From Escherichia coli (GTDB lineage: Bacteria > Pseudomonadota > Gammaproteobacteria > Enterobacterales > Enterobacteriaceae), in NCBI RefSeq assembly GCF_029227855.1, contig NZ_CP074356.1: 64,000 nucleotides of DNA; one strand, written 5' to 3'. Of the stretch, positions 16,013 through 64,000 are shown in pieces. The translations under genes and the position numbers were made by a program. A model generated the notes under the pieces. The model did not search any database. It had not been told where the DNA came from and saw nothing but the letters and a program-made list of their open reading frames with translations. Positions within the stretch are counted from its first letter, which is position 1; each line of letters starts with the position of its first letter.

Positions 16013-16047
16013 GATAAAAAAAGACCGGCAGATGCCGGTCACGTGGG

Positions 16048-18381: not shown

Positions 18382-18395
18382 GGTGTTGTTCTCCT

Positions 18396-20545: not shown

Positions 20546-20563
20546 TGTTCCGGCAGTCTTACA
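20546..20563. promoter_or_regulatory. TGT-N12-ACA site (Ogr/Delta-type activator box), candidate leftward late promoter
   Basis: TGTtccggcagtcttACA ~110 bp upstream of the vis start; P2/P4 late promoters carry TGT-N12-ACA centred near -55. Confidence 0.4.
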
Positions 20564-20719
20564 ATGGCTGTGTATTTTTTGTACATCAGCGCCAGATAGC
20601 TTTAAAACGCTCTGGAAGGAGCTGGAAAAAATTATAGTGAAATACAAATTGTTTTTTCTTATTTATTTCAGTGAATTAATAAAAATAAAAAGTAATGAAC
20701 AGCACAAAAAGCCCATTAA

Positions 20720-20830
20720 CGGGTGAACAGTGGTGAACAGACGGTGAACAGTCATTACTGCGATTGTTCACCCTTTAACTTACTGTATTACTTATCTTTT
20801 TTCTTATGGTGAACAGAGGTGAACAGTAAA
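20720..20830. repeat. ori-like cluster of GGTGAACAG iterons
   Basis: Five direct copies and one inverted copy of GGTGAACA(G) within ~110 bp, ~4.8 kb from the crr-like repeats, as in P4. Confidence 0.65.
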
Positions 20831-20904
20831 ATATAAAAAAACAAACAGTAAGCCGGTTTTTCCTGCGACCTTTTCCTGGCTTGCCGGTCTGAGGATGAGT
20901 CTCC

Positions 20905-20922
20905 TGTGTCAGGGCTGGCACA
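20905..20922. promoter_or_regulatory. TGT-N12-ACA site, candidate Psid late promoter activator box
   Basis: TGTgtcagggctggcACA centred ~80 bp upstream of the sid ATG. Confidence 0.45.
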
Positions 20923-20994
20923 TCTGCAATGCGTCGTGTTGTTGTCCGGTGTACGTCACAATTTTCTTAACCTGAAGTGACGAGGAGCCGGAAA

Positions 20995-21729: not shown

Positions 21730-22226
21730 TTTACTGCCCGTCGTGTGGACATGTTGCTCACACCCGTCGCGCACATTTCATGGACGATGGCACCAAGATA
21801 ATGATTGCACAGTGCCGGAATATTTATTGCTCTGCGACATTTGAAGCGAGTGAAAGCTTTTTCTCTGACTGTAAAGATTCAGGAATGGAATACATTTCAG
21901 GCAAACAGAGATACCGCGATTCACTGACGTCGGCCTCCGGCAGTATGAAACGCCCGAAAAGAATGCTTGTTACCGGATATTGTTGTCGGAGATGTAAAGG
22001 CCTTGCACTGTCAAGAACATCGCGGCGTCTGTCTCAGGAAGTCACCGAGCGTTTTTATGTGTGCACGGATTCGGGCTGTGGTCTGGTGTTTAAAACGCTT
22101 CAGACCATCAACCGCTTCATTGTCCGCCCGGTCACACCGGACGAACTGGCAGAACGCCTGCATGAAAAACAGGAACTGCCGCCAGTACGGTTAAAAACAC
22201 AATCATATTCGCTGCGTCTGGAATGA
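21726..22226 (+). CDS. delta: P4 Delta-like late-gene activator (tandem Ogr-type zinc fingers)
   Basis: 166 aa; two Ogr-like Cys motifs (CPSCGH...CRNIYC and CCRRCKG...CTDSGC); start overlaps sid stop. Confidence 0.88.
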   Translation: MIYCPSCGHVAHTRRAHFMDDGTKIMIAQCRNIYCSATFEASESFFSDCKDSGMEYISGKQRYRDSLTSASGSMKRPKRMLVTGYCCRRCKGLALSRTSRRLSQEVTERFYVCTDSGCGLVFKTLQTINRFIVRPVTPDELAERLHEKQELPPVRLKTQSYSLRLE

Positions 22227-22299
22227 GGGCTGCCGGTTAACCCCGGCCGTCGCCGCACACCGTATTTTTATTCTTCAGCATGATGAGAAAGAGATAACG

Positions 22300-22872
22300 A
22301 TGGAAAGCACAGCCTTACAGCAGGCCTTTGACACCTGTCAGAATAACAAAGCAGCATGGCTGCAACGCAAAAATGAGCTGGCAGCGGCCGAACAGGAATA
22401 CCTGCGGCTTCTGTCAGGAGAAGGCAGAAACGTCAGTCGCCTGGACGAATTACGCAATATTATCGAAGTCAGAAAATGGCAGGTGAATCAGGCCGCCGGT
22501 CGTTATATTCGTTCGCATGAAGCCGTTCAGCACATCAGCATCCGCGACCGGCTGAATGATTTTATGCAGCAGCACGGCACAGTACTGGCGGCCGCACTGG
22601 CACCGGAGTTGATGGGCTACAGTGAACTGACGGACATTGCCCGAAACTGTGCCATACAGCGTGCCACAGATGCCCTGCGTGAAGCCCTTCTGTCCTGGCT
22701 TGCGAAGGGGGAAAAAATTAATTATTCCGCACAGGATAGCGACATTTTAACGACCATCGGATTCAGGCCTGACGCGGCTTCGGTGGATGACAGCCGTGAA
22801 AAATTCACCCCTGCGCAGAACATGATTTTTTCGCGTAAAAGTGCGCAACTGGCATCACATCAGTCTGTGTAA
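22300..22872 (+). CDS. psu: P4 Psu-like polarity suppression / capsid decoration protein
   Basis: 190-aa ORF following delta; same length and position as P4 Psu. Confidence 0.78.
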   Translation: MESTALQQAFDTCQNNKAAWLQRKNELAAAEQEYLRLLSGEGRNVSRLDELRNIIEVRKWQVNQAAGRYIRSHEAVQHISIRDRLNDFMQQHGTVLAAALAPELMGYSELTDIARNCAIQRATDALREALLSWLAKGEKINYSAQDSDILTTIGFRPDAASVDDSREKFTPAQNMIFSRKSAQLASHQSV

Positions 22873-23036
22873 AACTCCCCGAAAATCCGTCCGATTTTAC
22901 TGAAAAAAGCCATGCATCGATAAGGTGCATGGCTTTGCATGCGTTTCCCTGCCTCATTTTCTGCAAACCGCGCCATTCCCGGCGCGGTCTGAGCGTGTCT
23001 GTGCAACTGCATTAAAACCGCCCTGCAAAGCGGGCG

Positions 23037-23055
23037 GGCGAGGCGGGGAAAGCAC
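23037..23055 (+). other. P2/P4-type cos site
   Basis: Exact 19-mer GGCGAGGCGGGGAAAGCAC, the P2/P4 cohesive-end sequence as I recall it, between psu and the cargo operon. Confidence 0.78.
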
Positions 23056-23076
23056 TGCGCGCACGAGAGTAAAACA

Positions 23077-23739
23077 TTACTCAATTGAAAAATGTAACAT
23101 TCCTCTCTCTCTCGGTGTAATGGTGTTGGGATGAACTAACCGTTCCATTTCAAAACCAAAATCATGATAAGCAGTATTATAAAAAGAGCTTAAAATAAAT
23201 TTCACAAACGTTACCGGACATAATGGTGACGACAATGGTATCCGGCAATTTTTAAACTGACCTAGGGTTAGGTGTGCTGCTGGATGAATAACATCATTAG
23301 CGTCATCAGGGGCATAATCCACTCGTATCGGAACGGGTAAAATTGATTTTTGGACAATGTCAGCATAAAAGTTGCTTTCGTCTAAATATAACTCAGGGTC
23401 ATTCTGGAATGATTCGTAATTAGGCGCGGGGAAATAACATAGTCTTTCTTTTACAAGTTTCATTCGACGATCAAACTGAAATAAAAGATGGAGTAACCCA
23501 CCATCTAATAATTTGATATTATATTGCCTTTTTTCGTCCAAGAAGTTATAGATATCAACATACTCAATATTTCTTAATGCAATTGAAGTATCAGCGAATC
23601 CGCTATAGCTGACATAATAATATTCTTTATCCCGTGTTATTACAGGATAGTTTTGTGCGTCACTGATACCCACTGATATCAGATGAGATGTGATTTTTCT
23701 AATTGCTGCGCAAATGCTACTTGAGTTCATCTCATTCAC
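23077..23739 (-). CDS. Hypothetical protein, second gene of the satellite cargo operon (candidate defense partner/effector)
   Basis: 220-aa ORF; start overlaps or lies 1 nt after the stop of the upstream helicase-like gene; AT-rich; no recognisable catalytic motif or TM segment. Confidence 0.7.
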   Translation of the reverse strand: MNEMNSSSICAAIRKITSHLISVGISDAQNYPVITRDKEYYYVSYSGFADTSIALRNIEYVDIYNFLDEKRQYNIKLLDGGLLHLLFQFDRRMKLVKERLCYFPAPNYESFQNDPELYLDESNFYADIVQKSILPVPIRVDYAPDDANDVIHPAAHLTLGQFKNCRIPLSSPLCPVTFVKFILSSFYNTAYHDFGFEMERLVHPNTITPRERGMLHFSIE

Positions 23740-25828
23740 CCTTCAGTTGCTTAATTAAAGCAAGGCGTAATTCTTCTGGTATATCTTCAACTCTAACTTG
23801 TCCATCCAATAGAACCATGAGATTATGGGCGTTCAATTTAGCTTGGTGTACTCTTTTTCTCTCTTGAGAAGTCATATCCCTGTTCACCAGTCGCATTTTT
23901 TTACGCTCTGCTTCTGTTGGGTATGTAAATTCCAGTTTAAATCCTCTTTGTTTCACCTCATTGTATTCGTTAATCAGGCCATCAAAGGAAGAACCCACAC
24001 CACATACACGAAGCCATGCTTTAGTTCTTGTCATTGCAGTAAAAAGGATATTTCTACGCTTTGCCAGTTCATAATCCACGTTGCAATAATGAGCATCCAT
24101 GATGTATACCATAGCTGCTTCGTTTCCCTTTGCTCTGAATATGGATGTAAATGTTACACTATTGTCTGAGAAAAACTCATCAGGAGAGCTTGTAATTCCA
24201 GCTATAGATGTATTAATTCCGTTTTGGAATAAAAGGTCACGCAGATAACCTACTTCATTTCTCATACGTATTGTATCTGGGTGAATTACAACAATGTCGC
24301 TAGGTAATATCTCTTCCTCATGAATATTTTTAAATATTTCCTGCGCAATCCAATTAGATTGAGAATGCTTGTCTTCAAATTTAACAAACTGGATCATCTC
24401 ATCAATTGAGTTATGTGCACTCAATAGGGATGGGCTAGATTTCGTTGTCCTTGATAATATAACCTCCTTTCCCTCAACTAATTCACCATCTATTTTTTCA
24501 TAACCAATCTCTGTCCATAATCCTTCAAAATCAAACATCTGAATTATTGGTTTATGATAAATACCAAACCCTAAAGCATGAGCCGTGGTTAAGATTGGGC
24601 CTGGATTTCGATAACAAATGTCTAAAGTTATATCTTGTTCTTCACTGGTGAAACTAACAATTGGTTTTCCATGCTCGTCTACTCCCCAAATTTGTTCAGG
24701 AGAAGGCATGGATGAATCCCCAAGATTTTGTAATTCATCATAAGCGTAAACTAATCGTTTCTTTTCCCCTAGCAAAGAATAACATATGCGGAGAAACTCA
24801 ATTGAAAAATCTTGAGCCTCATCAATAAGGATGAAATCATATAATTTCTTATCTTCTTTTTTATTATCGAGGAAGTTCTTACAGGCAGCCTGAAAAGGTG
24901 TTTCATTAAATTCTGCAAGACGACGTGCGCCGTTATAATCGTAATAAGGTATATTATGTGCCACACATGCGTTGTAATATAAACCTTCTGTTTTAGAGCC
25001 GCCCCAGGCATGAATAATGTCTACGTTATCCCAATCAATTCCATTATCATCTGCGAATGCTGAGACTAAATGTTTTAGTTGCTCTTTGAGAGAGCGACTA
25101 TTGAAAGTAACTGCTATTTTCCAGTGAGGATTTTGTGAGTGTATATGTGCAATTTTTCGAGCGAGAACAATAGTCTTACCTGAGCCAGCAAGCCCACGAA
25201 TCCTTTGGACATTATCAATATTGACCAAGACGGCAGTCGTTTGACTAGAATCAAGAGTGGCAAGTGAATTCTCCAATTTTTTTAGTACGCTACCCTTTGA
25301 GTCAATCTGTCTGACATAGCTTCTTTTTCTCTTGGGCTTCAATTTTGAAAGTGATTGAACATGGGATAGTAAAGTTTCAAGAAGGGAACCATCATCCCAG
25401 GTAATGTCATTGAGAATAGATAATATTTCATCAACATTGGAACTAATGCTTAAACCACTGTCACAATCAAAATCATCAATATTTATACAGTTTGGTGCGA
25501 AAACAATACTGTTCACAGGTACGTTTAATATTCTGTTTTTAGTCAGTGCTTTTACTTCAGAAAGTTTTGCGACGAATTTCATGTGCATTTCGTCAATGAT
25601 ATCAATATCATCTTGGGTTAACTCTCTTTCCTCATTGAAATGGAAAATGACAACACCATGCTTTGATGAGCAAATTAGACCATCAAGAGTAACATTGTTT
25701 TCGCTTAGAAAAATAACAGGAAAACCGCGATAATAATATCCAGTTATATCATTTATCTTTCTTATTGAATTTTCTAGAATATCAGAAACAGTATGATTCT
25801 GAGGTTTCATTCCCAATATTTCAATCAT
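23732..25828 (-). CDS. SF1 (UvrD-like) helicase-family ATPase with ~200-aa N-terminal domain of unknown function; candidate defense protein
   Basis: 698 aa; Walker A GLAGSGKT (res ~212-219), motif II LIDEAQDF (res ~334-341), C-terminal FRAKGNEAAMVYI and FTAMTRTKAWL resembling UvrD-like helicase C-terminal motifs; GGAG Shine-Dalgarno 8 nt before the ATG; start overlaps the int stop. Confidence 0.85.
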   Translation of the reverse strand: MIEILGMKPQNHTVSDILENSIRKINDITGYYYRGFPVIFLSENNVTLDGLICSSKHGVVIFHFNEERELTQDDIDIIDEMHMKFVAKLSEVKALTKNRILNVPVNSIVFAPNCINIDDFDCDSGLSISSNVDEILSILNDITWDDGSLLETLLSHVQSLSKLKPKRKRSYVRQIDSKGSVLKKLENSLATLDSSQTTAVLVNIDNVQRIRGLAGSGKTIVLARKIAHIHSQNPHWKIAVTFNSRSLKEQLKHLVSAFADDNGIDWDNVDIIHAWGGSKTEGLYYNACVAHNIPYYDYNGARRLAEFNETPFQAACKNFLDNKKEDKKLYDFILIDEAQDFSIEFLRICYSLLGEKKRLVYAYDELQNLGDSSMPSPEQIWGVDEHGKPIVSFTSEEQDITLDICYRNPGPILTTAHALGFGIYHKPIIQMFDFEGLWTEIGYEKIDGELVEGKEVILSRTTKSSPSLLSAHNSIDEMIQFVKFEDKHSQSNWIAQEIFKNIHEEEILPSDIVVIHPDTIRMRNEVGYLRDLLFQNGINTSIAGITSSPDEFFSDNSVTFTSIFRAKGNEAAMVYIMDAHYCNVDYELAKRRNILFTAMTRTKAWLRVCGVGSSFDGLINEYNEVKQRGFKLEFTYPTEAERKKMRLVNRDMTSQERKRVHQAKLNAHNLMVLLDGQVRVEDIPEELRLALIKQLKGE

Positions 25829-27011
25829 TTTGAACTCCGGTAGATAAATTCATCAAAAAATCCGAGTATTTTTGCATCATATATTTTCTTTTATCAAGAT
25901 ACAAAGCATGATTATATGTGCCTCGGATAGTATTCTTATCAACATGTGCGAGCTGAATCTCAATCCATGCGCTCTCAAATCCCATTTCATGAAGAATTGT
26001 CGATAGTGTATGCCTAAAACCATGACCAGTAGTTCTTCCCTTATAACCTAATGATTCAATAACTTGGTTTACACTTTCTTTGCTTATCGGTTTTCTACGA
26101 TCATTTCTGCCAATAAAAACATAGGGATAGTCCGATGTTATCGGTTGTAGTTGTTTAAACAGTTCAATTACCTGAGATGATAAAGGTACTATATGTGGCC
26201 GACGCATTTTCATCCGTTCAGCAGGTATTTCCCAGATACCTTTTATCAAATCAATTTCACTCCAAGTTGCAAAACGCATTTCCTGCGTCCTGACTCCTGT
26301 CATCATTAGGATCTTGGTTGCGTTTTTGGTAATAATACTTCCAGTATATGACTCTAGATCTCTAACAAAATGAGGTAGCTCTTCCGCGGATAAAAACGGA
26401 TGATGCCTTTGCTTGGGAATAGCCAAAGCGATTGCTAAATCAGGCGCCGGATTGTATTCAGCACGGCCAGTGATGATCGCGTAGCGAAACACTTCTCCAC
26501 ATCGTTGGCGAACTTTTCTGGTTTTCTCCAACGCTCCACGTTTTTCGATGCGCTTAAGTACTTCAAGCAGTTCTAATGGCTTAATTTCAGATATTGGGCG
26601 TTTACCAATGAAAGGAAAAACGTCCTGTTCGAATGTTTTAATAATTTCCTCCCGATAAGCGATAGTCCAGCGATCTGCTTTTGCTGCATGCCATTCTCTG
26701 CTAACTGACTCAAAAGAATTTTCAGTTGATAATTTTTGAGCAAGTTTCTGAGCCTTCCGTTCTTCTACTGGGTCTATGCCGTTTGCTACCTGCTTACGTG
26801 CAGTATCACGTTTCTCTCGTGCTTCTGCGAGGCTAACAAGTTCGTAACTACCAAATGACATTAGCCGTGCTTTACCGGCGAAACGAAAGCGGAAGCGCCA
26901 GCCCTTTGAACCGTCTGGCTTGATGAGTAGTGACAAACCGTGCCCATCATTCATTGTATATGGTTTGTCTTGTGGTTTTGCGCGTTTGATTTGTATATCG
27001 GTTAGAGCCAT
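25821..27011 (-). CDS. int: P4-type tyrosine integrase
   Basis: 396 aa; catalytic HGFRHT...(R)...Y motifs in the C-terminus; N-terminal P4-integrase-like region; lies next to selC. Confidence 0.93.
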   Translation of the reverse strand: MALTDIQIKRAKPQDKPYTMNDGHGLSLLIKPDGSKGWRFRFRFAGKARLMSFGSYELVSLAEAREKRDTARKQVANGIDPVEERKAQKLAQKLSTENSFESVSREWHAAKADRWTIAYREEIIKTFEQDVFPFIGKRPISEIKPLELLEVLKRIEKRGALEKTRKVRQRCGEVFRYAIITGRAEYNPAPDLAIALAIPKQRHHPFLSAEELPHFVRDLESYTGSIITKNATKILMMTGVRTQEMRFATWSEIDLIKGIWEIPAERMKMRRPHIVPLSSQVIELFKQLQPITSDYPYVFIGRNDRRKPISKESVNQVIESLGYKGRTTGHGFRHTLSTILHEMGFESAWIEIQLAHVDKNTIRGTYNHALYLDKRKYMMQKYSDFLMNLSTGVQND

Positions 27012-27173
27012 GTGTATAACTGAAAACTGCGTATGAAGATTCTATACACATTACTATACATATTTTTCGCGGATTCAGGGAGATGATCTCGGACTATTAC
27101 GGACAAGATGATTATTTATGATATTGAATATAAAGGATTTTATGGAGTATCTCGGAACTGGCTGGATGAAGTT

Positions 27174-27268
27174 TGGCGGAAGATCACAGGAGTCGAACCT
27201 GCCCGGGACCGCTGGCGGCCCCAACTGGATTTGAAGTCCAGCCGCCTCACCGGAGACGACGATCTTCC
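27174..27268 (-). tRNA. selC: tRNA-Sec (selenocysteine tRNA, UCA anticodon)
   Basis: 95-nt match to the selC sequence as I recall it, on the minus strand, including long variable arm and CCA end. Confidence 0.93.
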
Positions 27269-49790: not shown

Positions 49791-50249
49791 TTACTGACGA
49801 CCAGAGTGACCAAAGCCGCCTTCACCGCGGTCGGTGGCGTCGAAATCTTCCACCAGATTAAATTCAGCCTGTACTACCGGAACAAAAATCATCTGGGCGA
49901 TGCGTTCGCCAGGTTGAATGGTGAAGCTGTCCTGACCACGGTTCCACACGGAAATCATCAACTGGCCCTGATAGTCAGAATCGATCAATCCTACCAGGTT
50001 ACCAAGCACGATACCGTGCTTATGTCCCAATCCGGAGCGCGGCAGCATCATTGCCGCCAGTGAAGGATCGGCAATATGAATCGCCAGCCCGGTCGGAACC
50101 AGCGTAGTGTCACCCGGAGCCAGTTCTACGGCGTCGTCGAGACAGGCACGCAGGTCAAGTCCGGCAGAGCCAGAGGTGGCATAAGTCGGGAGCGGAAATT
50201 CCTTCCCAACGCGCGGGTCCAGAATCTTAACGTCGATTTTTTTCATCAT
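49791..50249 (-). CDS. dut: dUTP diphosphatase
   Basis: 152-aa ORF with dUTPase motifs. Confidence 0.93.
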
Positions 50250-51447
50250 AACGGGTCACGATCTCGTCGAGTAATAATTGGCCAAGGAGCTCTTTGCGCT
50301 CAAGCGGTAAGACTTTATCTCCGTCCTGCCAGAAAAGGTGTAATGCGTTGTTGTCGCTGTTAAATCCTTGAGTTGGCTGGGAAACATCGTTCGCGCAGAT
50401 CAGATCAAGGTTTTTACGGATACGTTTTTGCCGGGCGTATTCTTCCACATTATTTGTTTCGGCGGCAAATCCAACGACGTAGGGTCGATGGTCTTTTAGT
50501 GCGGCAACGCCTGCGACGATATCGGGGTTTTTAACCATTTTTATTGTTAATTCATCACCCTGCGTGGCCTGCTTTTTGATTTTCTCTGGGGCCACGGTAG
50601 CTGCGCGATAATCCGCCACGGCGGCGCAGCCGATAAAAATATTTTGCTGCTGTACAGAAGCATTCACGGCGGCTTCCATTTCCAGCGCGGTCATCACATC
50701 AACACGTTTAACAAACGGTGGCGTCGGTAGTGAAACCGGACCTGATACCAGCGTGACGTTCGCGCCACGACGGGCAGCGGCGGCGGCGATAGCAAAACCC
50801 ATCTTGCCGGAGCTGTGATTAGAGATATAACGCACGGGATCGAGCGGTTCACGCGTCGGGCCGGCGGTAATCATAATGTTCAGATGTTTCAGGTCGTTGA
50901 CGGGCGAAAAATGCGCTACCGCCATATCCACAATGGTTAACGGATCGAGCATTCGCCCAGGACCGATATCACCACAAGCCTGACTGCCACTGTCTGGCCC
51001 CCAGATGAGCAAACCACGGGAAGCAAGCACCTCTAAATTATGCTGCGTGGCAGCGGCACGGTACATCTGCTGGTTCATGGCGGGGAGCACGGCTACAGGC
51101 GCAGGTGTAGCCAGACAAATCGTCGATACCAGGTCATTCGCCATTCCGGCAGCAACACGGGCAATCAAATCTGCCGTGGCAGGGGCGAGAATCACTAAAT
51201 CAGCCCATTTACCCAGCTCAATATGGCCCATAGCGGCTTCGGCTGCCGGGTCCAGCAGACTGTCGGAAACGGGATAACCAGAAACCGCCTGCAAGCTAAG
51301 TGGGGTGATAAAGGCTTTTGCCGCTTCGGTCATGGCTACGCGGACGTCGGCCCCGCGATCGCGCAAACGACGCACCAGTTCAGGGGTTTTATAGGCAGCA
51401 ATACCGCCGCTAACGCCGAGAACGATTTTTTTACCGGCCAGGCTCAT
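50227..51447 (-). CDS. coaBC: Bifunctional phosphopantothenoylcysteine decarboxylase/synthetase
   Basis: 406 aa from [15 protein letters not shown]; 3' end overlaps the dut start. Confidence 0.93.
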
Positions 51448-51618
51448 GATGATTTTTCCTGTTGGGTGACACCAGAAGTTGGCGATTTTATCACAATACT
51501 TTTGTTGTCGTGCCTTCACCTGAGAATCACTTTGCGAGGCGCTTTCCAGGATTGAAAACTGGCCGTCGATTTAACGGAACGGCTATGACAGGATGCGAGC
51601 ACCACAAAGGAGGTGAAG

Positions 51619-52287
51619 GTGAAAAACAATTCACAGCTGTTGATGCCGCGCGAAAAAATGCTGAAGTTTGGTATTAGCGCCTTAACGGATGTCGAGCTGC
51701 TGGCGCTATTTCTGCGTACCGGAACGCGCGGTAAAGATGTATTAACCCTGGCAAAAGAGATGCTGGAGAATTTCGGCTCTCTTTATGGCTTGTTAACCTC
51801 TGAATATGAACAATTTAGTGGCGTTCATGGAATTGGCGTGGCGAAATTTGCCCAGTTAAAGGGGATTGCTGAACTGGCGCGGCGTTACTACAACGTGCGG
51901 ATGCGTGAAGAAAGCCCTTTACTCAGCCCGGAGATGACGAGGGAATTTTTACAAAGCCAGCTCACGGGTGAGGAGCGGGAGATCTTTATGGTGATCTTTC
52001 TCGACTCCCAACACCGGGTTATAACGCATAGCCGTCTTTTTTCCGGCACGCTAAACCATGTTGAAGTCCATCCTCGGGAAATTATCCGCGAAGCGATAAA
52101 AATAAACGCCTCGGCGCTGATCCTTGCACATAATCACCCTTCGGGTTGTGCTGAACCCAGTAAAGCGGATAAACTCATTACTGAACGGATAATAAAGAGT
52201 TGTCAGTTCATGGATTTACGCGTGCTCGACCATATCGTGATTGGGCGTGGAGAGTATGTTTCTTTTGCCGAACGCGGCTGGATTTAA
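51619..52287 (+). CDS. yicR: UPF0758 JAB-domain protein YicR (RadC-like)
   Basis: 222 aa from the GTG at 51619 (AAGGAGG Shine-Dalgarno 5 nt upstream); JAMM-like HNHPSG motif. Confidence 0.87.
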
Positions 52288-52482
52288 CCCGCTATGCGCG
52301 ATCCTTCGGGATCTTTGTCTGTTCGGGACTTGAGCACATCGCTGAGTCAGCGTATACTACGCCACCTTTGAGAATCTCGGGTTTGGCATTTGGGCCTGGC
52401 AATCGAGAGTTCACATAGAACTGCGATGACCGGGCTGTAAAGCCTGACGAGGCGCCAATACCCCATACGAAGCTCGAGCTAA

Positions 52483-52740
<258 letters not shown>

Positions 52741-52757
52741 GTACTTAGAGGAAATAA

Positions 52758-52928
<171 letters not shown>

Positions 52929-52950
52929 TTCTCGCTTTGATGTAACAAAA

Positions 52951-52978
52951 AACCTCGCTCCGGCGGGGTTTTTTGTTA
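52951..52978 (+). terminator. Putative intrinsic terminator/attenuator after rpmG
   Basis: Short GC hairpin (CCTCG...CGGGG) followed by TTTTTTGTT. Confidence 0.4.
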
Positions 52979-53025
52979 TCTGCTTGCCCCCATATTGATT
53001 GCATCTGTTCATTCCTGGAGATGCT

Positions 53026-53835
53026 ATGCCTGAATTACCCGAAGTTGAAACCAGCCGTCGCGGCATAGAACCGCATCTCGTTGGTGCAACCATTCTTCAT
53101 GCAGTGGTGCGCAACGGACGCTTGCGCTGGCCGGTTTCAGAAGAGATCTACCGTTTAAGCGACCAACCAGTGCTTAGCGTGCAGCGGCGGGCTAAATATT
53201 TGCTGCTGGAGCTGCCTGAGGGCTGGATTATCATTCATTTGGGGATGTCTGGCAGCCTGCGCATCCTTCCAGAAGAACTTCCCCCTGAAAAGCATGACCA
53301 TGTGGATTTGGTGATGAGCAACGGTAAAGTGCTGCGCTACACCGATCCGCGCCGCTTTGGTGCCTGGCTGTGGACCAAAGAGCTGGAAGGGCATAATGTG
53401 CTGGCCCATCTTGGACCGGAGCCGCTTAGCGACGATTTCAACGGTGAGTACCTGCATCAGAAGTGCGCGAAGAAAAAAACGGCGATTAAACCGTGGCTGA
53501 TGGATAACAAGCTGGTGGTAGGGGTAGGGAATATCTATGCCAGCGAATCACTGTTTGCGGCGGGGATCCATCCGGATCGGCTGGCGTCATCACTGTCGCT
53601 GGCAGAGTGTGAATTGTTAGCTCGGGTGATTAAAGCGGTGTTGCTGCGTTCGATTGAGCAGGGCGGTACAACGCTGAAAGATTTTCTGCAAAGTGATGGT
53701 AAACCGGGCTATTTCGCACAGGAATTGCAGGTTTACGGGCGAAAAGGCGAGCCGTGTCAGGTGTGCGGTACGCCGATTGTGGCGACTAAACATGCGCAGC
53801 GGGCAACGTTTTATTGTCGGCAGTGCCAGAAGTAA
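53026..53835 (+). CDS. mutM: Formamidopyrimidine-DNA glycosylase
   Basis: 269 aa from MPELPEVE; C-terminal zinc finger. Confidence 0.93.
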
Positions 53836-53873
53836 TTCATGCGCGCCGGATGGCATACCATCCGGCATAAACG

Positions 53874-55638
<1,765 letters not shown>

Positions 55639-55989
55639 AGTAAATAGCTGACTTATGGATGTGCTGGGGATTCTATGTATTTAGCTGTGGCTTTACCATT
55701 ACTTTTCCCGTTTTTGACTTAAATAGCAATTTACCCGCCAATTCTTGCTGAACATCTATACTTTTTTTGTATTTTTATGCGATTCATTGATTTCTGCTGT
55801 ACGTGCAGGAAGGAATCGCAGAGCAACAGTGAAAGAATATGGTTGCTAATGATTTTATTTGATTGATTTCTTTATTGAAAATCAACAATGTGCTTAAAAA
55901 TCATTCGGGTCGGATTGCCGCGAAAGAAGTGATACACTAGCGCGTCAATATCAGTGCGGTATCAGTATTCAGGTAGCTGTTGAGCCTGG

Positions 55990-56001
55990 GGCGGTAGCGT
56001 G
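55990..56001 (+). promoter_or_regulatory. ops element (GGCGGTAGCGTG) in the waaQ operon leader (JUMPStart)
   Basis: Exact 12-mer RfaH-recruiting ops sequence ~50 bp upstream of waaQ. Confidence 0.7.
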
Positions 56002-56050
56002 CTTTTTCTGCTTCACCTTAATCGGATAATCTCAACAAAAAGAGTTACTT

Positions 56051-57109
56051 GTGGATAAGCCATTTCGAAGAATTTTGCTCATTAAGATGCGTTTTCATGG
56101 GGATATGTTATTAACTACTCCCGTCATTAGTTCGCTGAAAAAAAATTACCCTGACGCAAAAATCGATGTGCTGCTTTATCAGGACACCATCCCGATCCTG
56201 TCTGAAAATCCAGAGATTAACGCGCTCTACGGCATAAAAAATAAAAAAGCAAAAGCCTCAGAAAAAATTGCCAACTTTTTTCATCTCATCAAGGTATTAC
56301 GTGCCAATAAGTATGACCTTATCGTCAATCTTACCGATCAATGGATGGTTGCTATACTGGTTCGCTTATTAAATACTCGTGTGAAAATTTCCCAGGATTA
56401 TCATCATCGGCAGTCTGCTTTTTGGCGTAAAAGTTTCACCCATTTGGTGCCGTTGCAGGGTGGAAATGTGGTGGAAAGTAACTTATCCGTGCTGACACCA
56501 TTGGGACTTGATTCGTTGGTGAAGCAGACAACCATGAGTTACCCGCCTGCAAGCTGGAAACGTATGCGTCGCGAACTTGATCACGCTGGTGTTGGACAAA
56601 ATTATGTGGTTATCCAACCTACGGCGCGGCAAATCTTCAAATGCTGGGACAACGCCAAGTTTTCCGCTGTGATTGATGCCTTACATGCTCGTGGTTATGA
56701 AGTCGTTCTGACGTCCGGCCCAGATAAAGACGATCTGGCCTGCGTCAATGAAATTGCGCAGGGATGCCAGACGCCACCAGTAACGGCGCTGGCTGGAAAG
56801 GTGACCTTCCCGGAACTTGGTGCGTTAATCGATCATGCGCAGCTGTTTATTGGCGTTGATTCCGCACCGGCGCATATTGCCGCTGCAGTTAATACGCCGC
56901 TGATATCGCTGTTTGGTGCGACAGATCATATTTTCTGGCGTCCCTGGTCAAATAACATGATTCAATTCTGGGCGGGAGATTACCGGGAAATGCCAACGCG
57001 CGATCAGCGTGACCGAAATGAGATGTATCTTTCGGTTATTCCGGCGGCAGATGTCATTGCTGCTGTCGATAAATTACTGCCCTCCTCCACGACAGGTACG
57101 TCGTTATGA
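56051..57109 (+). CDS. waaQ: LPS heptosyltransferase III
   Basis: GT9-family ORF; GTG at 56051, alternative ATG at 56087. Confidence 0.83.
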   Translation: MDKPFRRILLIKMRFHGDMLLTTPVISSLKKNYPDAKIDVLLYQDTIPILSENPEINALYGIKNKKAKASEKIANFFHLIKVLRANKYDLIVNLTDQWMVAILVRLLNTRVKISQDYHHRQSAFWRKSFTHLVPLQGGNVVESNLSVLTPLGLDSLVKQTTMSYPPASWKRMRRELDHAGVGQNYVVIQPTARQIFKCWDNAKFSAVIDALHARGYEVVLTSGPDKDDLACVNEIAQGCQTPPVTALAGKVTFPELGALIDHAQLFIGVDSAPAHIAAAVNTPLISLFGATDHIFWRPWSNNMIQFWAGDYREMPTRDQRDRNEMYLSVIPAADVIAAVDKLLPSSTTGTSL

Positions 57110-58230
57110 TCGTTGCTTTTTGTTTATATAAATATTTTCCCTTTGGCGGTTTGCAGCGTGATTTTATGCGTATTGCTCAGACAGTCGCCGCCCGAGGTCA
57201 TCATGTTCGGGTTTATACCCAGTCGTGGGAAGGCGAATGCCCTGATGTATTTGAACTGATCAAAGTGCCGGTTAAATCGCATACCAATCACGGGCGCAAT
57301 GCGGAGTATTTTGCCTGGGTGCAAAAACATTTACGCGAACATCCCGTCGATAAAGTCGTTGGATTCAACAAAATGCCGGGGCTGGACGTTTATTATGCCG
57401 CTGATGTTTGTTATGCCGAGAAAGTAGCGCAGGAAAAAGGCTTTTTCTATCGCCTGACGTCACGTTATCGCCATTATGCCGCCTTTGAGCGGGCAACCTT
57501 CGAACAGGGTAAGCCGACACAGTTGCTGATGCTGACAGATAAGCAAATCGCCGATTTCCAGAAACATTATCAGACTGAAGCGGAGCGTTTTCATATTCTG
57601 CCACCGGGGATTTATCCTGATCGTAAATATAGCCAGCAGCCAGCCAATAGCCGTGAAATCTTCCGTAAGAAGAATGGAATAACCGAACAACAATATTTAT
57701 TGTTGCAGGTCGGTTCAGACTTCACGCGTAAAGGTGTCGATCGTTCCATTGAAGCACTTGCTTCGTTACCGGATTCGCTGCGCCACAACACATTGCTATA
57801 TGTTGTTGGGCAGGATAAACCGCGAAAATTTGAGGCGCTGGCAGAAAAACGCGGCGTGCGCAGTAATGTTCACTTTTTCTCGGGGCGCAATGATGTCTCG
57901 GAATTAATGGCGGCGGCGGATTTATTACTGCATCCTGCCTACCAGGAAGCGGCGGGAATTGTGCTGCTGGAAGCGATTACTGCAGGATTACCGGTACTAA
58001 CAACAGCCGTTTGTGGCTATGCGCATTATATTGTCGACGCTAATTGCGGCGAGGCTATTGCTGAGCCATTCCGCCAGGAAACATTGAATGAGATTTTACG
58101 CAAAGCGTTAACGCAATCTTCATTGCGCCAGGCCTGGGCGGAAAATGCGCGACATTATGCTGATACACAAGATTTATACAGTCTGCCAGAGAAAGCGGCG
58201 GATATCATAACGGGTGGTCTGGATGGTTGA
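57106..58230 (+). CDS. waaG: LPS core glucosyltransferase I (GT4)
   Basis: 374-aa ORF recognised as WaaG. Confidence 0.93.
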
Positions 58231-59020
58231 ACTTAAAGAGCCGTTTGCCACGTTATGGCGCGGCAAAGATCCTTTTGAGGAAGTTAAAACCTTGCAGGGT
58301 GAGGTATTTCGTGAACTGGAAACTCGCCGTACTCTGCGCTTTGAAATGGCGGGCAAAAGCTATTTTCTCAAATGGCATCGCGGCACGACCCTGAAAGAGA
58401 TAATCAAAAATTTACTCTCATTGCGGATGCCAGTATTAGGCGCTGACCGCGAATGGAATGCGATTCATCGACTGCGGGATGTCGGCGTTGATACTATGTA
58501 TGGGGTGGCATTTGGCGAAAAAGGCATGAATCCGCTGACCAGAACTTCATTTATTATTACCGAAGATCTGACACCAACCATAAGTCTTGAAGATTACTGT
58601 GCTGACTGGGCGACTAACCCTCCAGATGTTCGCGTAAAGCGTATGCTTATTAAGCGTGTCGCGACGATGGTGCGCGATATGCATGCTGCGGGCATTAACC
58701 ACCGTGACTGTTATATCTGTCATTTCCTGCTGCACTTGCCTTTTTCCGGTAAGGAAGAGGAGTTAAAAATTTCGGTAATTGACCTGCACCGGGCGCAGCT
58801 TCGCACGCGCGTTCCACGTCGTTGGCGGGATAAAGATCTTATTGGGCTTTATTTTTCTTCGATGAATATCGGCCTGACTCAGCGGGATATCTGGCGGTTT
58901 ATGAAAGTGTATTTTGCCGCCCCGCTTAAAGACATTCTCAAGCTGGAACAAGGACTGCTGTCGCAAGCAGAAGCAAAAGCCACAAAAATCAGGGAAAGAA
59001 CGATTCGAAAATCGTTGTAA
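58223..59020 (+). CDS. waaP: LPS core heptose(I) kinase
   Basis: 265 aa from MVELKEPF; kinase-like motifs. Confidence 0.92.
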
Positions 59021-59035
59021 TTTCCGGAGAGAAAT

Positions 59036-60052
59036 ATGAGTGCCCACTATTTTAATCCACAAGAGATGATCAATAAGACAATCATCTTCGATGAAAGGCC
59101 AGCGGCGTCAGTGGCATCATCATTCCATGTTGCTTATGGCATTGATAAAAACTTTCTTTTTGGTTGTGGTGTTTCAATCACGTCAGTTTTGTTACATAAC
59201 AACGACGTGAGTTTTGTTTTCCACGTTTTTATTGATGATATCCCTGAAGCCGATATCCAGCGTTTAGCCCAATTGGCGAAAAGCTATCGTACCTGTATCC
59301 AGATCCATCTGGTAAATTGTGAACGGCTTAAGGCATTACCGACGACCAAAAATTGGTCTATTGCCATGTATTTCCGTTTTGTAATTGCAGATTACTTTAT
59401 TGATCAACAAGATAAGATCCTTTACCTGGATGCTGATATCGCCTGTCAGGGAAACTTAAAGCCGCTGATAACAATGGATCTTGCCAATAACGTTGCTGCT
59501 GTTGTTACTGAACGCGATGCTAACTGGTGGTCGTTACGGGGTCAAAGTCTGCAGTGTAATGAACTTGAAAAGGGTTACTTTAATTCAGGTGTCCTGTTAA
59601 TTAATACACTAGCGTGGGCGCAGGAGTCCGTTTCTGCTAAAGCGATGTCGATGCTTGCTGATAAAGCCATCGTTTCCCGTTTAACCTATATGGATCAAGA
59701 TATCCTTAATCTTATCCTGTTAGGGAAAGTTAAATTCATTGATGCTAAATACAATACGCAATTTAGTTTAAATTATGAATTAAAAAAATCATTTGTTTGT
59801 CCAATTAATGATGAAACCGTATTAATTCATTATGTCGGCCCGACAAAACCCTGGCATTACTGGGCCGGTTATCCAAGTGCGCAACCTTTTATCAAAGCCA
59901 AAGAAGCATCGCCCTGGAAAAATGAACCGTTAATGCGGCCAGTTAACTCAAACTATGCTCGTTATTGCGCCAAGCATAATTTTAAACAAAACAAACCAAT
60001 TAACGGGATAATGAATTATATTTATTATTTTTATTTAAAGATAATAAAATGA
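59036..60052 (+). CDS. waaO: GT8-family LPS outer-core alpha-glycosyltransferase (WaaO-like)
   Basis: 338 aa; GT8 DxD motif YLDADI; position directly after waaP as in R1/R4 core types. Confidence 0.68.
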   Translation: MSAHYFNPQEMINKTIIFDERPAASVASSFHVAYGIDKNFLFGCGVSITSVLLHNNDVSFVFHVFIDDIPEADIQRLAQLAKSYRTCIQIHLVNCERLKALPTTKNWSIAMYFRFVIADYFIDQQDKILYLDADIACQGNLKPLITMDLANNVAAVVTERDANWWSLRGQSLQCNELEKGYFNSGVLLINTLAWAQESVSAKAMSMLADKAIVSRLTYMDQDILNLILLGKVKFIDAKYNTQFSLNYELKKSFVCPINDETVLIHYVGPTKPWHYWAGYPSAQPFIKAKEASPWKNEPLMRPVNSNYARYCAKHNFKQNKPINGIMNYIYYFYLKIIK

Positions 60053-60068
60053 AATTGAGAAAAGTTAA

Positions 60069-61064
60069 ATGAATGAATTTATAAAAGAACGGTTTTCGTA
60101 TTTAGCAGATAATAAAAAAGAAAACGCCCCAGAGCTAAATGTTTCCTACGGTATCGATAAGAATTTTTTGTATGGTGCTGGCGTTTCAATTTCTTCCGTT
60201 TTGATTAATAATTCAGATATTAATTTTGTCTTTCATGTTTTCACTGATTATGTGGATGATGATTATTTAAAGTCATTTAATGAAACAGCAAAACAATTTA
60301 ATACCTCAATTATTGTATATTTAATTGACCCCAAATACTTTGCTGATCTGCCGACGTCACAGTTTTGGTCGTACGCGACATACTTCAGGGTATTGTCTTT
60401 TGAATATCTGAGTGAAAGTATTTCCACACTGCTGTATCTGGATGCCGATGTTGTTTGTAAAGGAAGCCTGAAACCTCTCACAGAAATTATATTTAAAGAT
60501 GAGTTTGCTGCGGTCATTCCTGACAATGATAGTACTCAGGCGGCATGTGCAAAACGCCTCAACATTCCCGAAATGAATGGACGTTATTTCAATGCAGGCG
60601 TTATCTATGTCAATCTTAAAAAATGGCATGAAGCAAATTTGACACCGTATTTACTCAAACTTTTACGAGGGGAAACTAAATATGGCTCTCTTAAATATTT
60701 AGATCAGGATGCGTTGAATATCGCATTTAATATGAATAATATCTACCTTGCGAAGGATTTTGATACTATTTATACCCTGAAAAACGAACTTTATGATCGT
60801 AGTCATCGAAAGTATCAGCAAACCATTACCGATAAAACAGTGTTGATTCACTATACAGGGATAACTAAACCATGGCATAGCTGGGCTGGATATCCGTCTG
60901 CATCATACTTTAATATCGCGCGTGAACAATCTCCCTGGAAGAAATATCCTCTTAAAGAGGCGCGGACTGTTGCAGAAATGCAGAAACAATATAAGCATCT
61001 GTTTGCCCATGGTGAGTATATAAAAGGCATAACTTCATTAATTAAGTACAAGCTTAAGAAATAA
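60069..61064 (+). CDS. waaT: GT8-family LPS outer-core alpha-glycosyltransferase (WaaT-like)
   Basis: 331 aa; GT8 motif YLDADV; second GT8 before the kinase. Confidence 0.62.
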   Translation: MNEFIKERFSYLADNKKENAPELNVSYGIDKNFLYGAGVSISSVLINNSDINFVFHVFTDYVDDDYLKSFNETAKQFNTSIIVYLIDPKYFADLPTSQFWSYATYFRVLSFEYLSESISTLLYLDADVVCKGSLKPLTEIIFKDEFAAVIPDNDSTQAACAKRLNIPEMNGRYFNAGVIYVNLKKWHEANLTPYLLKLLRGETKYGSLKYLDQDALNIAFNMNNIYLAKDFDTIYTLKNELYDRSHRKYQQTITDKTVLIHYTGITKPWHSWAGYPSASYFNIAREQSPWKKYPLKEARTVAEMQKQYKHLFAHGEYIKGITSLIKYKLKK

Positions 61065-61073
61065 ATTACTCTT

Positions 61074-61766
61074 ATGATTACAAGTATACGTTATCGCGGC
61101 TTCTCATTTTATTACAAAGATAATGATAATAAATATAAAGAAATCTTTGATGAAATACTGGCCTATAATTTTAAAACAGTAAAAGTATTACGTAATATTG
61201 ATGATACCAAAGTATCATTGATTGATACGAAATATGGTCGCTATGTTTTTAAAGTCTTTGCCCCGAAAACGAAAAGGAATGAACGTTTTTTAAAATCTTT
61301 TGTAAAAGGTGACTACTATCAGAATTTGATCGTTGAAACCGATCGTGTCAGAAGTGCAGGTCTTACTTTTCCTAATGATTTTTATTTTCTGGCTGAGCGT
61401 AAAATTTTCAACTATGCCAGTGTTTTTATTATGCTTATCGAGTATGTCGAGGGCGTAGAGCTCAATGATATGCCGATTATTCCAGAAAATGTTAAAACAG
61501 AAATTAAGGCTTCAATGGAAAAATTGCATGCCTTAAATATGCTATCGGGCGACCCACACCGGGGTAATTTTATCGTTAGTAAAGATGGTGTCAGGATAAT
61601 TGACCTATCCGGTAAAAGCTGTACGGCAGAGCGTAAAGCTCGTGATCGTCTGGCCATGGAACGTCACCTGGGTATTGCCAACGAAATAAAAGATTATGGC
61701 TACTATTCAGTAATCTACAGAACCAAACTACGCAAATTTATTAAAAAATTAAAAGGCAAAGCGTAA
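61074..61766 (+). CDS. waaY: LPS core heptose(II) kinase
   Basis: 230-aa kinase-like ORF in the conserved waaY position. Confidence 0.8.
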   Translation: MITSIRYRGFSFYYKDNDNKYKEIFDEILAYNFKTVKVLRNIDDTKVSLIDTKYGRYVFKVFAPKTKRNERFLKSFVKGDYYQNLIVETDRVRSAGLTFPNDFYFLAERKIFNYASVFIMLIEYVEGVELNDMPIIPENVKTEIKASMEKLHALNMLSGDPHRGNFIVSKDGVRIIDLSGKSCTAERKARDRLAMERHLGIANEIKDYGYYSVIYRTKLRKFIKKLKGKA

Positions 61767-61791
61767 ACCACACAGTCAAAACGGAACCAAC

Positions 61792-62817
61792 ATGGATTTA
61801 TTAGCTGAGAGTATTACTGAAGTCGCTGTCTCTGGGGAAATTGCTAACACCGATCGTGTGTTAAATATCGCTTACGGTATTGACCGTAACTTTTTATTTG
61901 GTGCGGCAGTATCTATGCAATCAGTTGTTATGCATAACCCGGACCTTGCGGTTAAGTTTCATCTCTTTACCGACTACATTGATGAAGATTATCTACAACG
62001 TGTTAATGCTTTTACCAGCAAAAATGCTAACGTTGAAGTAATAATTTATAAAGTCTCCAATGCCTTTATTGATATCTTCCCCAGCCTGAAACAGTGGTCT
62101 TATGCAACATTCTTCCGTTTAGTTGCGTTCCAGTATTTGAGTGAAACTATTGAAAATCTGTTATATATCGATGCTGATGTCATCTGTAAAGGCTCATTAG
62201 CTGGATTGCTTGATATTAATTTTGATGAGGATAAGTTCGCAGCTGTTATTAAAGATGTGCCTTTTATGCAGGAAAAACCAGCGAAGCGTCTGGCTATAGA
62301 GGGACTTCCAGGGAATTATTTCAACGCCGGTGTAGTATATCTGCAGCTTGAAGCATGGGCGAAAAATGATTTTATGAATAAAGCCATTGCTATGCTGGCA
62401 AGTGACCCGCAGCACACGAAGTATAAATGCCTTGATCAGGATATTTTAAATATTCTGTTCTTTGGTCATTGTATTTTTATTAGCGGCGATTATGATTGCT
62501 TTTATGGCATTGACTATGAGTTAAAAAATAAAAGCGATGAAGATTATAAAAAGACCATTACCGATGATACTAAGCTGATTCATTATGTTGGCGTAACGAA
62601 GCCCTGGAACGACTGGACGAATTATCCCTGCCAGAAGTATTTTAATGAGGCTTATCAGGCTTCTTGCTGGAATGATGTGGCGTTTATTCCAGCCACGAAT
62701 GAAAAGCAGTATCAAGTGAAATATCAACATGCAAAGAAAAATGGTGATACGTTTAACGCTTTTATTTACTTCATTAAATTTAAATTAAATAAGTATAAAA
62801 GAAAACTATTTGGATAA
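61792..62817 (+). CDS. waaW: GT8-family LPS outer-core alpha-glycosyltransferase (WaaW-like)
   Basis: 341 aa; GT8 motif YIDADV. Confidence 0.62.
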   Translation: MDLLAESITEVAVSGEIANTDRVLNIAYGIDRNFLFGAAVSMQSVVMHNPDLAVKFHLFTDYIDEDYLQRVNAFTSKNANVEVIIYKVSNAFIDIFPSLKQWSYATFFRLVAFQYLSETIENLLYIDADVICKGSLAGLLDINFDEDKFAAVIKDVPFMQEKPAKRLAIEGLPGNYFNAGVVYLQLEAWAKNDFMNKAIAMLASDPQHTKYKCLDQDILNILFFGHCIFISGDYDCFYGIDYELKNKSDEDYKKTITDDTKLIHYVGVTKPWNDWTNYPCQKYFNEAYQASCWNDVAFIPATNEKQYQVKYQHAKKNGDTFNAFIYFIKFKLNKYKRKLFG

Positions 62818-62901
62818 TAATAAAAATCATGGATGTCTGAGTTACAATAATAATTAAGGATGAGTACTATCATATTTTATTAGTTCAGGCAAGAGAACAC
62901 G

Positions 62902-63885
62902 ATGAGCAATGATTACCCTTTAGTATCCATAATAATACCGACGTATAATTCATCTGATTACATTACTGAAACTCTAACGAAATTAGAAAAACAAACTTAC
63001 CCAAATTTTGAAATTGTTATTGTTAATGATGGTTCTAAAGATAACACATCAAACGTTTTGAGAGAGTATGGGTTAACCCACTCTCGATTAATTATTATCA
63101 ATAAAGAAAATGGCGGTGTTTCGTCTGCCAGGAATACAGGTATCCGCAAGGCGCAAGGACAGTTTATATGTTTTATGGATGATGATGATGAGATAGATCC
63201 TAACTATCTGCTGAAGATGTATACCAGACAACATGAGACGGGAGGGGATGCGATTTATTGTGGGCTTTATGGCCATTATATAAAAGATGGTGTTACTTAC
63301 TCACCTATAAATACAGAGTTTAATGAAGGATCTTTACTTTTCGACTTTTTTTATAAAAAGGTTAGATTCCATATAGGGTGCTTGTTTATAAGAAAACAAC
63401 TTCTGGAAGAGAATAATCTTTTTTTTGATGAAGATTTACGACTAGGAGAAGATCTTGATTTTATCTATCGACTGCTAATTACATGCGATATGTATGCGGT
63501 TCCATATTATATGTATAAGCATAACTATAGAGAAAATTCCTTAATGAACTCATGTAGAACCATCACTCATTATCGACATGAGTCATTTGCGCACGAAAGA
63601 ATCTACTCTTCTGTGATGCAGTTATACAAAGGTAACCGGAAAGAAGAAATTCATACATTATTGAGTCAAAATAGAGCTTATCATAAAACTCGTTATTTAT
63701 GGAATGTTCTACTTAATGGTGATTTTAAACTATTGAATCAATTAGTTGAAAGCAATGATAAAGAATTAAGAGATTGTAATCTTCCTGGCAAGAGAGATAA
63801 GAGACGAGCAAAAATATTAGCATCAAAAAATTATATTCTCTGGAGGATGGTAAGACTGGTAAATAGAAAAAAGAATAAACGTTAG
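62902..63885 (+). CDS. waaV: GT2-family LPS outer-core beta-glycosyltransferase (WaaV-like)
   Basis: 327 aa; GT2 signature IIPTYNS...VNDGSKDNT...DDDD. Confidence 0.62.
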   Translation: MSNDYPLVSIIIPTYNSSDYITETLTKLEKQTYPNFEIVIVNDGSKDNTSNVLREYGLTHSRLIIINKENGGVSSARNTGIRKAQGQFICFMDDDDEIDPNYLLKMYTRQHETGGDAIYCGLYGHYIKDGVTYSPINTEFNEGSLLFDFFYKKVRFHIGCLFIRKQLLEENNLFFDEDLRLGEDLDFIYRLLITCDMYAVPYYMYKHNYRENSLMNSCRTITHYRHESFAHERIYSSVMQLYKGNRKEEIHTLLSQNRAYHKTRYLWNVLLNGDFKLLNQLVESNDKELRDCNLPGKRDKRRAKILASKNYILWRMVRLVNRKKNKR

Positions 63886-64000
63886 ATCTTGCATTAAATA
63901 ACCCATCCTCGTAGCATAGGTTGAAACTATATGTCGTTTTGTTGGAATGAAATTAATTCTGGTATAAAGTCTTTAATTCTCATATTATGTATTTTTTCTT

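Follow-up and report, generated by a model that had tools for sequence, protein, structure and literature searches.

A standard, intact R1-type lipopolysaccharide core locus in an Escherichia coli genome segment

The core type of E. coli lipopolysaccharide (LPS) decides which phages are able to use a rough core as receptor (for example, PhiX174 on R1), where the O antigen is attached and which antibodies or vaccines directed at the core recognize the strain. The R1 operon runs waaQ-G-P-O-T-Y-W-V-L on one strand, with a GT2 glycosyltransferase gene, waaV, following waaW. The R4 operon shares waaQ-G-P-O-T-Y-W with R1 and likewise ends in waaL, but carries a GT25 gene, waaX, in place of waaV. K-12 (MG1655) differs more widely: it has waaS, waaB, waaJ(R), waaZ and waaU, is without waaT, waaW and waaV, and, unlike R1, carries waaL in the opposite gmhD-waaF-waaC operon. 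A sequence-only reading of the DNA described here had quoted the K-12 order as S-B-O-Y-R; the correct order is S-B-O-J(R)-Y-Z-U, and waaL belongs to the opposite operon just named. R1 has been found in 35.5% of 4,549 genomes, 59.7% of UPEC and 92.6% of NMEC (PMC13293308), frequencies in agreement with that reading, which had described R1 as a common type among extraintestinal and commensal isolates.

Here we compare with these systems the waa genes in a stretch of 64,000 nucleotides from an E. coli genome (contig NZ_CP074356.1; hereafter the window). We conclude with near certainty that positions 56051-64000 represent the central waaQ operon of an R1-core-type waa locus, comprising waaQ-G-P-O-T-Y-W-V and the start of waaL. 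The features of this region and its leader are given below, with activities as predicted from published work on R1 strains.

55963-56001, plus strand: JUMPstart element in the waaQ leader (Rfam RF01707, 55.2 bits against a gathering score of 35)
55990-56001, plus strand: ops motif GGCGGTAGCGTG in the JUMPstart element (pattern search, exactly one match in the window)
56051-57109, plus strand: waaQ (rfaQ), predicted heptosyltransferase III, HepIII onto the inner core (NF007742, 712.9 bits, cutoff 467)
57106-58230, plus strand: waaG, predicted GT4 glucosyltransferase, first outer-core glucose onto HepII (PGAP name of the gene at the identical position)
58223-59020, plus strand: waaP (rfaP), predicted heptose(I) kinase (NF011703, 479.8 bits, cutoff 170)
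59036-60052, plus strand: waaO (338 aa), predicted retaining GT8 enzyme, second outer-core glucose (NF011718, 612 bits, cutoff 461)
60069-61064, plus strand: waaT (331 aa), predicted GT8 alpha-1,2-galactosyltransferase, GalI onto GlcII (Glyco_transf_8 and Glyco_transf_8C, 245 bits)
61074-61766, plus strand: waaY (rfaY; 230 aa), predicted heptose(II) kinase (NF007684, 400.7 bits, cutoff 248; PF06176, 430 bits)
61792-62817, plus strand: waaW (341 aa), predicted GT8 alpha-1,2-galactosyltransferase, GalII onto GalI (Glyco_transf_8 and Glyco_transf_8C, 244 bits)
62902-63885, plus strand: waaV (327 aa), predicted GT2 beta-1,3-glucosyltransferase, R1-defining (Glycos_transf_2, PF00535, 136.8 bits)
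62723-64000, plus strand: R1-specific segment, made up of the last ~95 nt of waaW, waaV and the waaL start (alignment with an R4 locus)
63931-64000, plus strand: waaL (O-antigen ligase), R1-type, first 70 nt (23 codons), the gene running past the end of the window

Positions 59036-63885 form the outer-core half of the waaQ operon and are spanned exactly by five open reading frames on the plus strand, which follow waaQ-waaG-waaP and encode two GT8 enzymes, the WaaY kinase, a third GT8 enzyme and a GT2 enzyme. Both the open reading frame coordinates and the Pfam assignments bear out the order given in the sequence-only reading, and NCBIfam identifies the upstream genes as RfaQ (713 bits) and RfaP (480 bits), with the GT4 protein that PGAP names waaG between them. 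The R1 operon order waaQ-G-P-O-T-Y-W-V-L is found on one strand, waaL being visible for its first 70 nt. Each of the five outer-core proteins has a letter-for-letter match in the protein collection, each on at least 1000 contigs, and the five frames are therefore intact common alleles rather than chance open reading frames.

The individual proteins are in line with this assignment. WaaO carries Glyco_transf_8 and Glyco_transf_8C (272 bits) together with DAD and HYVGPTKPW motifs, and is 99.1% identical to its counterpart in E. coli C, the classical R1 strain, compared with 50.6% to K-12 WaaO. NCBIfam and PGAP label it a 3-alpha-galactosyltransferase, whereas R1 chemistry assigns glucose to that step; in literature that cites Heinrichs et al. 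1998 and Vinogradov et al. 1999, R1 WaaO adds GlcII in alpha-1,3 linkage to GlcI. We believe that the galactosyl label is a product of model naming, and that WaaO can be predicted to use a glucose donor. WaaT, whose function is taken from the same citing literature, is 99.7% identical to the E. coli C protein and finds its best K-12 match in WaaJ(R), at 43%. WaaY shares 99.1% of its residues with E. coli C, as does WaaW 99.4%, the latter being named [quoted passage not shown] in its sources. Finally, WaaV contains a DDDD motif at residues 93-96, carries the UniRef name "Beta1,3-glucosyltransferase" and is 97.6% identical to E. coli C WaaV; a GT2 waaV gene thus follows waaW, as in R1, on the strength of PF00535, the source name and the identity to E. 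coli C.

Upstream, WaaQ and WaaG are 99.4% and 99.2% identical to the E. coli C proteins, and WaaQ, WaaG and WaaP are 73%, 90.4% and 84.5% identical to those of K-12. The start of waaP was placed at 58223, as by PGAP in strain GE3, the mechanical open reading frame beginning at a GTG at 58214. At the JUMPstart/ops leader, RfaH-dependent antitermination of the long operon would be expected to take place. Between 55600 and 64000, a generic sigma-70 scan returned 21 promoter-like sites against 27 by shuffle expectation, and a generic terminator scan returned 4 terminator-like sites against 7; since both counts are at or below chance, the scans speak neither for nor against a single transcription unit.

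Comparison with whole genomes leads to the same assignment. From 59036 to 64000 the window matches two strains independently typed as R1, GE3 (CP012376) and RM10466 (CP028381), at 100% identity, and GE3 also has the same gene layout; these two, E. coli C and Nissle are all listed as R1 in a supplementary table (PMC13293308). E. coli C (CP020543) is 99.4% identical to the window at the DNA level over the same 4965 nt, free of gaps, with the same waaQ-G-P-O-T-Y-W-V-L order and eight proteins of equal length that are 97.6-99.7% identical. The two differ only by allele, with 30 of the 4965 nt substituted and 8 residue changes among the 327 of WaaV, and E. coli C carries the same R1 typing amplicon. 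E. coli C served as our R1 reference; the prototype R1 rough strain is reportedly F470 of Heinrichs et al. 1998.

The downstream ligase, proposed in the sequence-only reading as a check on the core type, supports R1 as far as it can be followed: the 23 visible codons, MSFCWNEINSGIKSLILILCIFS, are identical to E. coli C WaaL, and the remaining 394 lie beyond the window. In GE3, which is identical up to position 64000, they complete a 417-aa waaL that is followed by waaC-waaF-gmhD on the opposite strand. As only 70 nt of waaL fall inside the window, the ligase type rests on these codons and on the identical genomes. The strain might, on this account, be a hybrid, of R1 and R4 or of other types, whose core is mixed or chimaeric because the genome holds an additional waaX/waaL pair at another site or because waaL is rearranged just past the end of the window. 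ECOR46 is a documented hybrid and provides a precedent (PMC13293308), and our view covers 64 kb of the genome. However, colinearity with ordinary R1 genomes extends to the last base of the window, no transposase breaks the locus, the number of places matched by 59036-64000 per matching genome has a median of one and a maximum of three, and nothing in the window points to a hybrid, which we consider highly improbable.

Given an ordinary R1 locus, the core may be assembled as follows, with enzyme roles drawn from the literature citing Heinrichs et al. 1998 and Vinogradov et al. 1999. Transcription would begin upstream of waaQ and cross the ~9-kb operon with the aid of RfaH recruited at JUMPstart/ops. 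On the cytoplasmic side of the inner membrane, WaaG would put GlcI on HepII of lipid A-Kdo2-Hep2, to which WaaO would add GlcII (alpha-1,3), WaaT GalI (alpha-1,2) and WaaW GalII (alpha-1,2), while WaaV would add a beta-1,3-glucose branch on GlcII. WaaP would phosphorylate HepI and WaaY HepII, and WaaQ would add HepIII. MsbA would then flip the finished core to the periplasmic side, where the R1-specific WaaL may join O antigen to the beta-glucose added by WaaV.

A locus that is R1 by sequence could nevertheless be non-functional here, for example in a rough strain with a silent or polar defect, so that the genotype would mis-predict the surface. E. coli C itself has R1 genes without an O antigen (O "-" in the table of PMC13293308). 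Against such a defect, all eight open reading frames are full length and match E. coli C in length, their DxD and KPW motifs are conserved, the five outer-core proteins are exact copies of the common alleles described above, and the JUMPstart/ops leader is intact. We regard a non-functional locus as still less probable than a hybrid.

Support for R1 rather than K-12 or R4 comes from five independent tests, and the preference of the sequence-only reading for the R1 over the K-12 arrangement is upheld by the primers, the typed identical genomes, the E. coli C match, the GT2 last gene and the waaL start. The flanks of the K-12 locus (waaA, coaD and mutM) are the same as here, and a leader lies upstream of waaQ in both, but K-12 WaaO and WaaY are only ~51-52% identical to the window proteins, and no window protein matches K-12 WaaS, WaaB, WaaZ or WaaU.

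PCR typing, another proposed check, was carried out in silico with the LPSTyper primers and product sizes (PMC13293308, Table 2), allowing up to 3 mismatches, and gave the R1 product only. The R1R4-R primer, common to R1 and R4, binds at 62661-62680 (plus strand) in waaW and R1-F at 63484-63502 (minus strand) in waaV, yielding a single exact product of 842 bp, the published R1 size for waaW-waaV. None of the R2, R3, R4 and K-12 LPSTyper primers matches the window, even with up to 3 mismatches; this includes all four primers of the R2 (waaZ-waaK) and R3 (waaJ-waaD) amplicons and those of the K-12 amplicon (waaY-waaU). An older R1 typing pair, reportedly that of Amor et al., has one primer site at 63782-63801 in the window, and its partner sits in waaL of an identical genome, which gives a product of 552 bp; the K-12 pair of the same set was sanity-checked on MG1655, where it yields 917 bp. 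On gene content and primer tests, the R4, K-12, R2 and R3 core types were rejected.

R4 is the closest of these, and the comparison with an R4 locus (L002, NZ_AP045770.1) shows where the two types part. L002 shares waaQ-G-P-O-T-Y-W as near-identical DNA, and its alignment with the window is identical through 62722, save for a C/T difference at 62694, and unrelated beyond, so that the two types diverge from 62723 on, within the 3' end of waaW. Because R4 loci are ~97-99.6% identical to the window up to 62722, the first four genes of 59036-63885 cannot separate R1 from R4. Beyond this point, L002 encodes a 257-aa GT25 WaaX where the window has the 327-aa GT2 WaaV, its last ~31 waaW codons differ and its WaaL is 35% identical to R1 WaaL. 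The sequence-only reading had stated that R4 differs mainly in the last gene; the last transferase indeed differs, but so do waaL and the last ~95 nt of waaW. That reading had also proposed testing the last transferase as WaaV or WaaX, and the outcome favors WaaV: the protein is a GT2 enzyme with no detectable similarity to the GT25 WaaX of L002 (best E-value 0.66). Pfam finds no GT25 waaX in the window and the R4-F site is absent from it, whereas the L002 control has both and gives the 380-bp R4 product with the in-silico primers. That the locus is R4, with WaaX as the last transferase and beta-galactose instead of beta-glucose, is the least probable alternative of all, since the shared DNA and a waaW-only match in ~694 of 5426 genomes are outweighed by a GT2 gene at 62902-63885 without similarity to the R4 gene, the missing R4-F primer site and a waaL start that fits R1. 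The R1 call made from gene order and family signatures was right, and gene family alone already splits WaaV (GT2) from WaaX (GT25).

The R1 locus is common: in a search of 5426 complete E. coli genomes, ~34% contained the waaW-waaV-waaL stretch, many of them with exactly the sequence of that stretch seen here. The gene set is a standard, intact and ordinary R1 set that is already known and holds nothing novel. The first R1 call was thus correct and the finding ordinary, roughly one in three sequenced E. coli carrying a standard intact set of this kind; calling R1 for this window is routine annotation and advances no open question. Elsewhere in the window, a P4-like satellite prophage with a helicase-DUF2290 defence pair lies at selC (15572-27171).

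We demonstrate that the waa outer-core genes follow the R1 rather than the K-12 arrangement. The gene order proposed in the sequence-only reading, in which waaQ-waaG-waaP is followed by GT8, GT8, kinase, GT8 and GT2 genes, is real and exact, as established by the ORF coordinates, the Pfam and NCBIfam families, and exact matches to public proteins:

59036-60052, + strand, waaO (ORF 1): Pfam GT8 and GT8 C-terminal domain; NCBIfam NF011718
60069-61064, + strand, waaT (ORF 2): Pfam GT8 and GT8 C-terminal domain
61074-61766, + strand, waaY (ORF 3): Pfam WaaY; NCBIfam RfaY, 401 bits
61792-62817, + strand, waaW (ORF 4): Pfam GT8 and GT8 C-terminal domain
62902-63885, + strand, waaV (ORF 5): Pfam glycosyltransferase family 2

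Two of the three upstream genes were recognized by NCBIfam (RfaQ, 713 bits; RfaP, 480 bits), and the gene between them encodes a GT4 protein with 90% identity to K-12 WaaG. A DxD motif (DAD) and an H-x-x-G-x-x-K-P-W motif are conserved in all three GT8 proteins, and WaaV retains a DDDD stretch at residues 93-96, which is consistent with active enzymes. Over 59036-63885 the G+C content is 35.5%, against 49.8% in the whole window, a low value of the kind commonly seen in genes for variable polysaccharides. The WaaO/WaaI equivalog NF011718 scores above cut-off for ORF 1 alone, and both this model and PGAP name WaaO a '3-alpha-galactosyltransferase'. This label probably stems from the way the NCBIfam model was named, given that the MG1655 annotation of the 51%-identical homologue specifies glucose, i.e. 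a glucosyltransferase, and that the R1 chemistry literature assigns glucose to this step.

The core type was judged by five independent lines of evidence: typing primers, typed strains, a classical R1 strain, the discriminating gene and the ligase. Among the nine primers that define R1, R2, R3, R4 and K-12 (Trofimova et al. 2025, PMC13293308), R1R4-R matches perfectly at 62661-62680 (+) and R1-F at 63484-63502 (-), giving in silico a product of 842 bp, the published R1 size, while the R2, R3, R4 and K-12 primers find no site in the window with 3 mismatches allowed. Many complete E. coli genomes match 59036-64000 at 100% identity, among them GE3 (CP012376) and RM10466 (CP028381), both typed R1 and assigned to phylogroup B1 (O71:H21 and O113:H21, respectively), as were E. 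coli C and Nissle 1917 typed R1 (supplementary table, PMC13293308). The classical R1 strain E. coli C (CP020543) has the same nine waa genes at equal lengths, with 99.4% gapless DNA identity over 4965 nt and eight proteins 97.6-99.7% identical. Of the older R1 primer pair of Amor et al., one primer binds at 63782-63801 and its partner lies in waaL of a genome identical over this stretch (552-bp product); as a control on this primer set, its K-12 pair yields a single 917-bp product on MG1655.

Similarity to K-12 drops stepwise across the locus (WaaG 90%, WaaP 84.5%, WaaQ 73%, WaaY 52%, WaaO 50.6%); WaaT (43%) and WaaW (38%) match only the paralogous WaaJ(R), and the protein comparison found no K-12 counterpart of WaaV. 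The K-12 order had been quoted as S-B-O-Y-R and needs correction, since the MG1655 annotation gives waaS-B-O-J(R)-Y-Z-U and puts waaL in the opposite operon.

The distinction from R4 depends on the last transferase and its surroundings. The R4-type comparator L002 (NZ_AP045770.1) is a validated control, because the typing primers of PMC13293308 give a 380-bp R4 amplicon on it. After waaW it encodes a GT25 protein of 257 aa and a ligase distinct from that of R1. The GT2 protein of the window (ORF 5) bears the source name 'Beta1,3-glucosyltransferase', that of WaaV, and has no detectable similarity to this GT25 protein in protein comparison. WaaX, being GT25, is excluded by the family call alone; the literature disagreement over its linkage (beta-1,4 in PMC13293308, beta-1,3 in another paper) is without effect on the R1 call. 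The two loci are essentially identical up to 62722 (one C/T difference) and unrelated beyond, which places the R1/R4 recombination boundary at 62723, within the waaW coding sequence and ~95 nt before its stop. The R1-specific module thus starts inside waaW and comprises the waaW tail, waaV and waaL, and the C-termini of WaaW differ between R1 (341 aa) and R4 (342 aa) because the boundary falls within the gene. Accordingly, the suggestion that R4 differs mainly in the last gene holds for the transferase but omits waaL and the waaW tail. L002 is one of ~694 genomes whose similarity to the query covers waaW but is lost near its 3' end.

The ligase start agrees with the R1 assignment: waaL begins at 63931, and the 23 codons of it that fall within the window match E. 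coli C WaaL exactly. R1 and R4 WaaL share only 35% identity. In GE3, a complete 417-aa ligase is followed by waaC-waaF-gmhD on the opposite strand. An ECOR46-like hybrid core in the source strain is the sole residual uncertainty, because most of waaL lies beyond the window end, and we regard it as highly improbable. The R1 locus is an already known system in a common allele: all five proteins have exact public matches, each on at least 1000 contigs, and the arrangement is present, over >=80% of the query, in 1826-1831 of the 5426 complete E. coli genomes searched (~34%), close to the published 35.5% of 4,549 genomes (PMC13293308).

On the enzyme roles given in the literature (citing Heinrichs et al. 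1998, Vinogradov et al. 1999 and Leipold et al. 2007), WaaG would add GlcI onto HepII, followed by GlcII (alpha-1,3) by WaaO, GalI (alpha-1,2) by WaaT and GalII (alpha-1,2) by WaaW. WaaV would then place a beta-1,3-glucose branch on GlcII, a step predicted to depend on prior WaaW action, and this glucose would be the R1-specific site of O antigen ligation by WaaL. WaaP and WaaY would phosphorylate HepI and HepII, and WaaQ would add HepIII.

Upstream of the operon lies one leader element:

55963-56001, JUMPstart element with ops motif GGCGGTAGCGTG, 50 nt upstream of waaQ (Rfam RF01707, 55.2 bits)

RfaH is recruited at JUMPstart/ops and suppresses termination in long LPS operons, and this element is expected to be the recruitment site for the waaQ operon. 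The equivalent K-12 leader is annotated as the source of the small RNA RirA. Generic scans for promoters and terminators gave no informative signal.

In a comparison with GE3 over 50036-64000, all 30 substitutions fall in 50036-59035 (~0.33%), which suggests a mosaic history near the inner-core/outer-core gene boundary. GE3 is otherwise colinear but lacks an 11.6-kb P4-like satellite prophage inserted at 15572-27171, at the 3' end of tRNA-Sec:

15549-15571 and 27172-27194, 23-bp direct repeat TTTGGCGGAAGATCACAGGAGTC (att) bounding the satellite
16048-18381, - strand, alpha-type primase-helicase
19300-19872, - strand, derepression protein
19832-20117, C4 / isrK RNAs
21726-22226, Delta/Ogr
22300-22872, Psu
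23077-25828, - strand, helicase and DUF2290 cargo pair in the psu-int gap
25821-27011, - strand, integrase
27178-27268, - strand, tRNA-Sec (selC)

Among 5426 complete E. coli genomes, just 25 carry the satellite in full length. The psu-int gap of P4-like elements is a known hotspot of defence genes; here it encodes a 698-aa UvrD-like helicase (PADLOC PDLC03002, 880 bits) and a 220-aa DUF2290 protein (PDLC02999, 258 bits), a candidate anti-phage defence pair.
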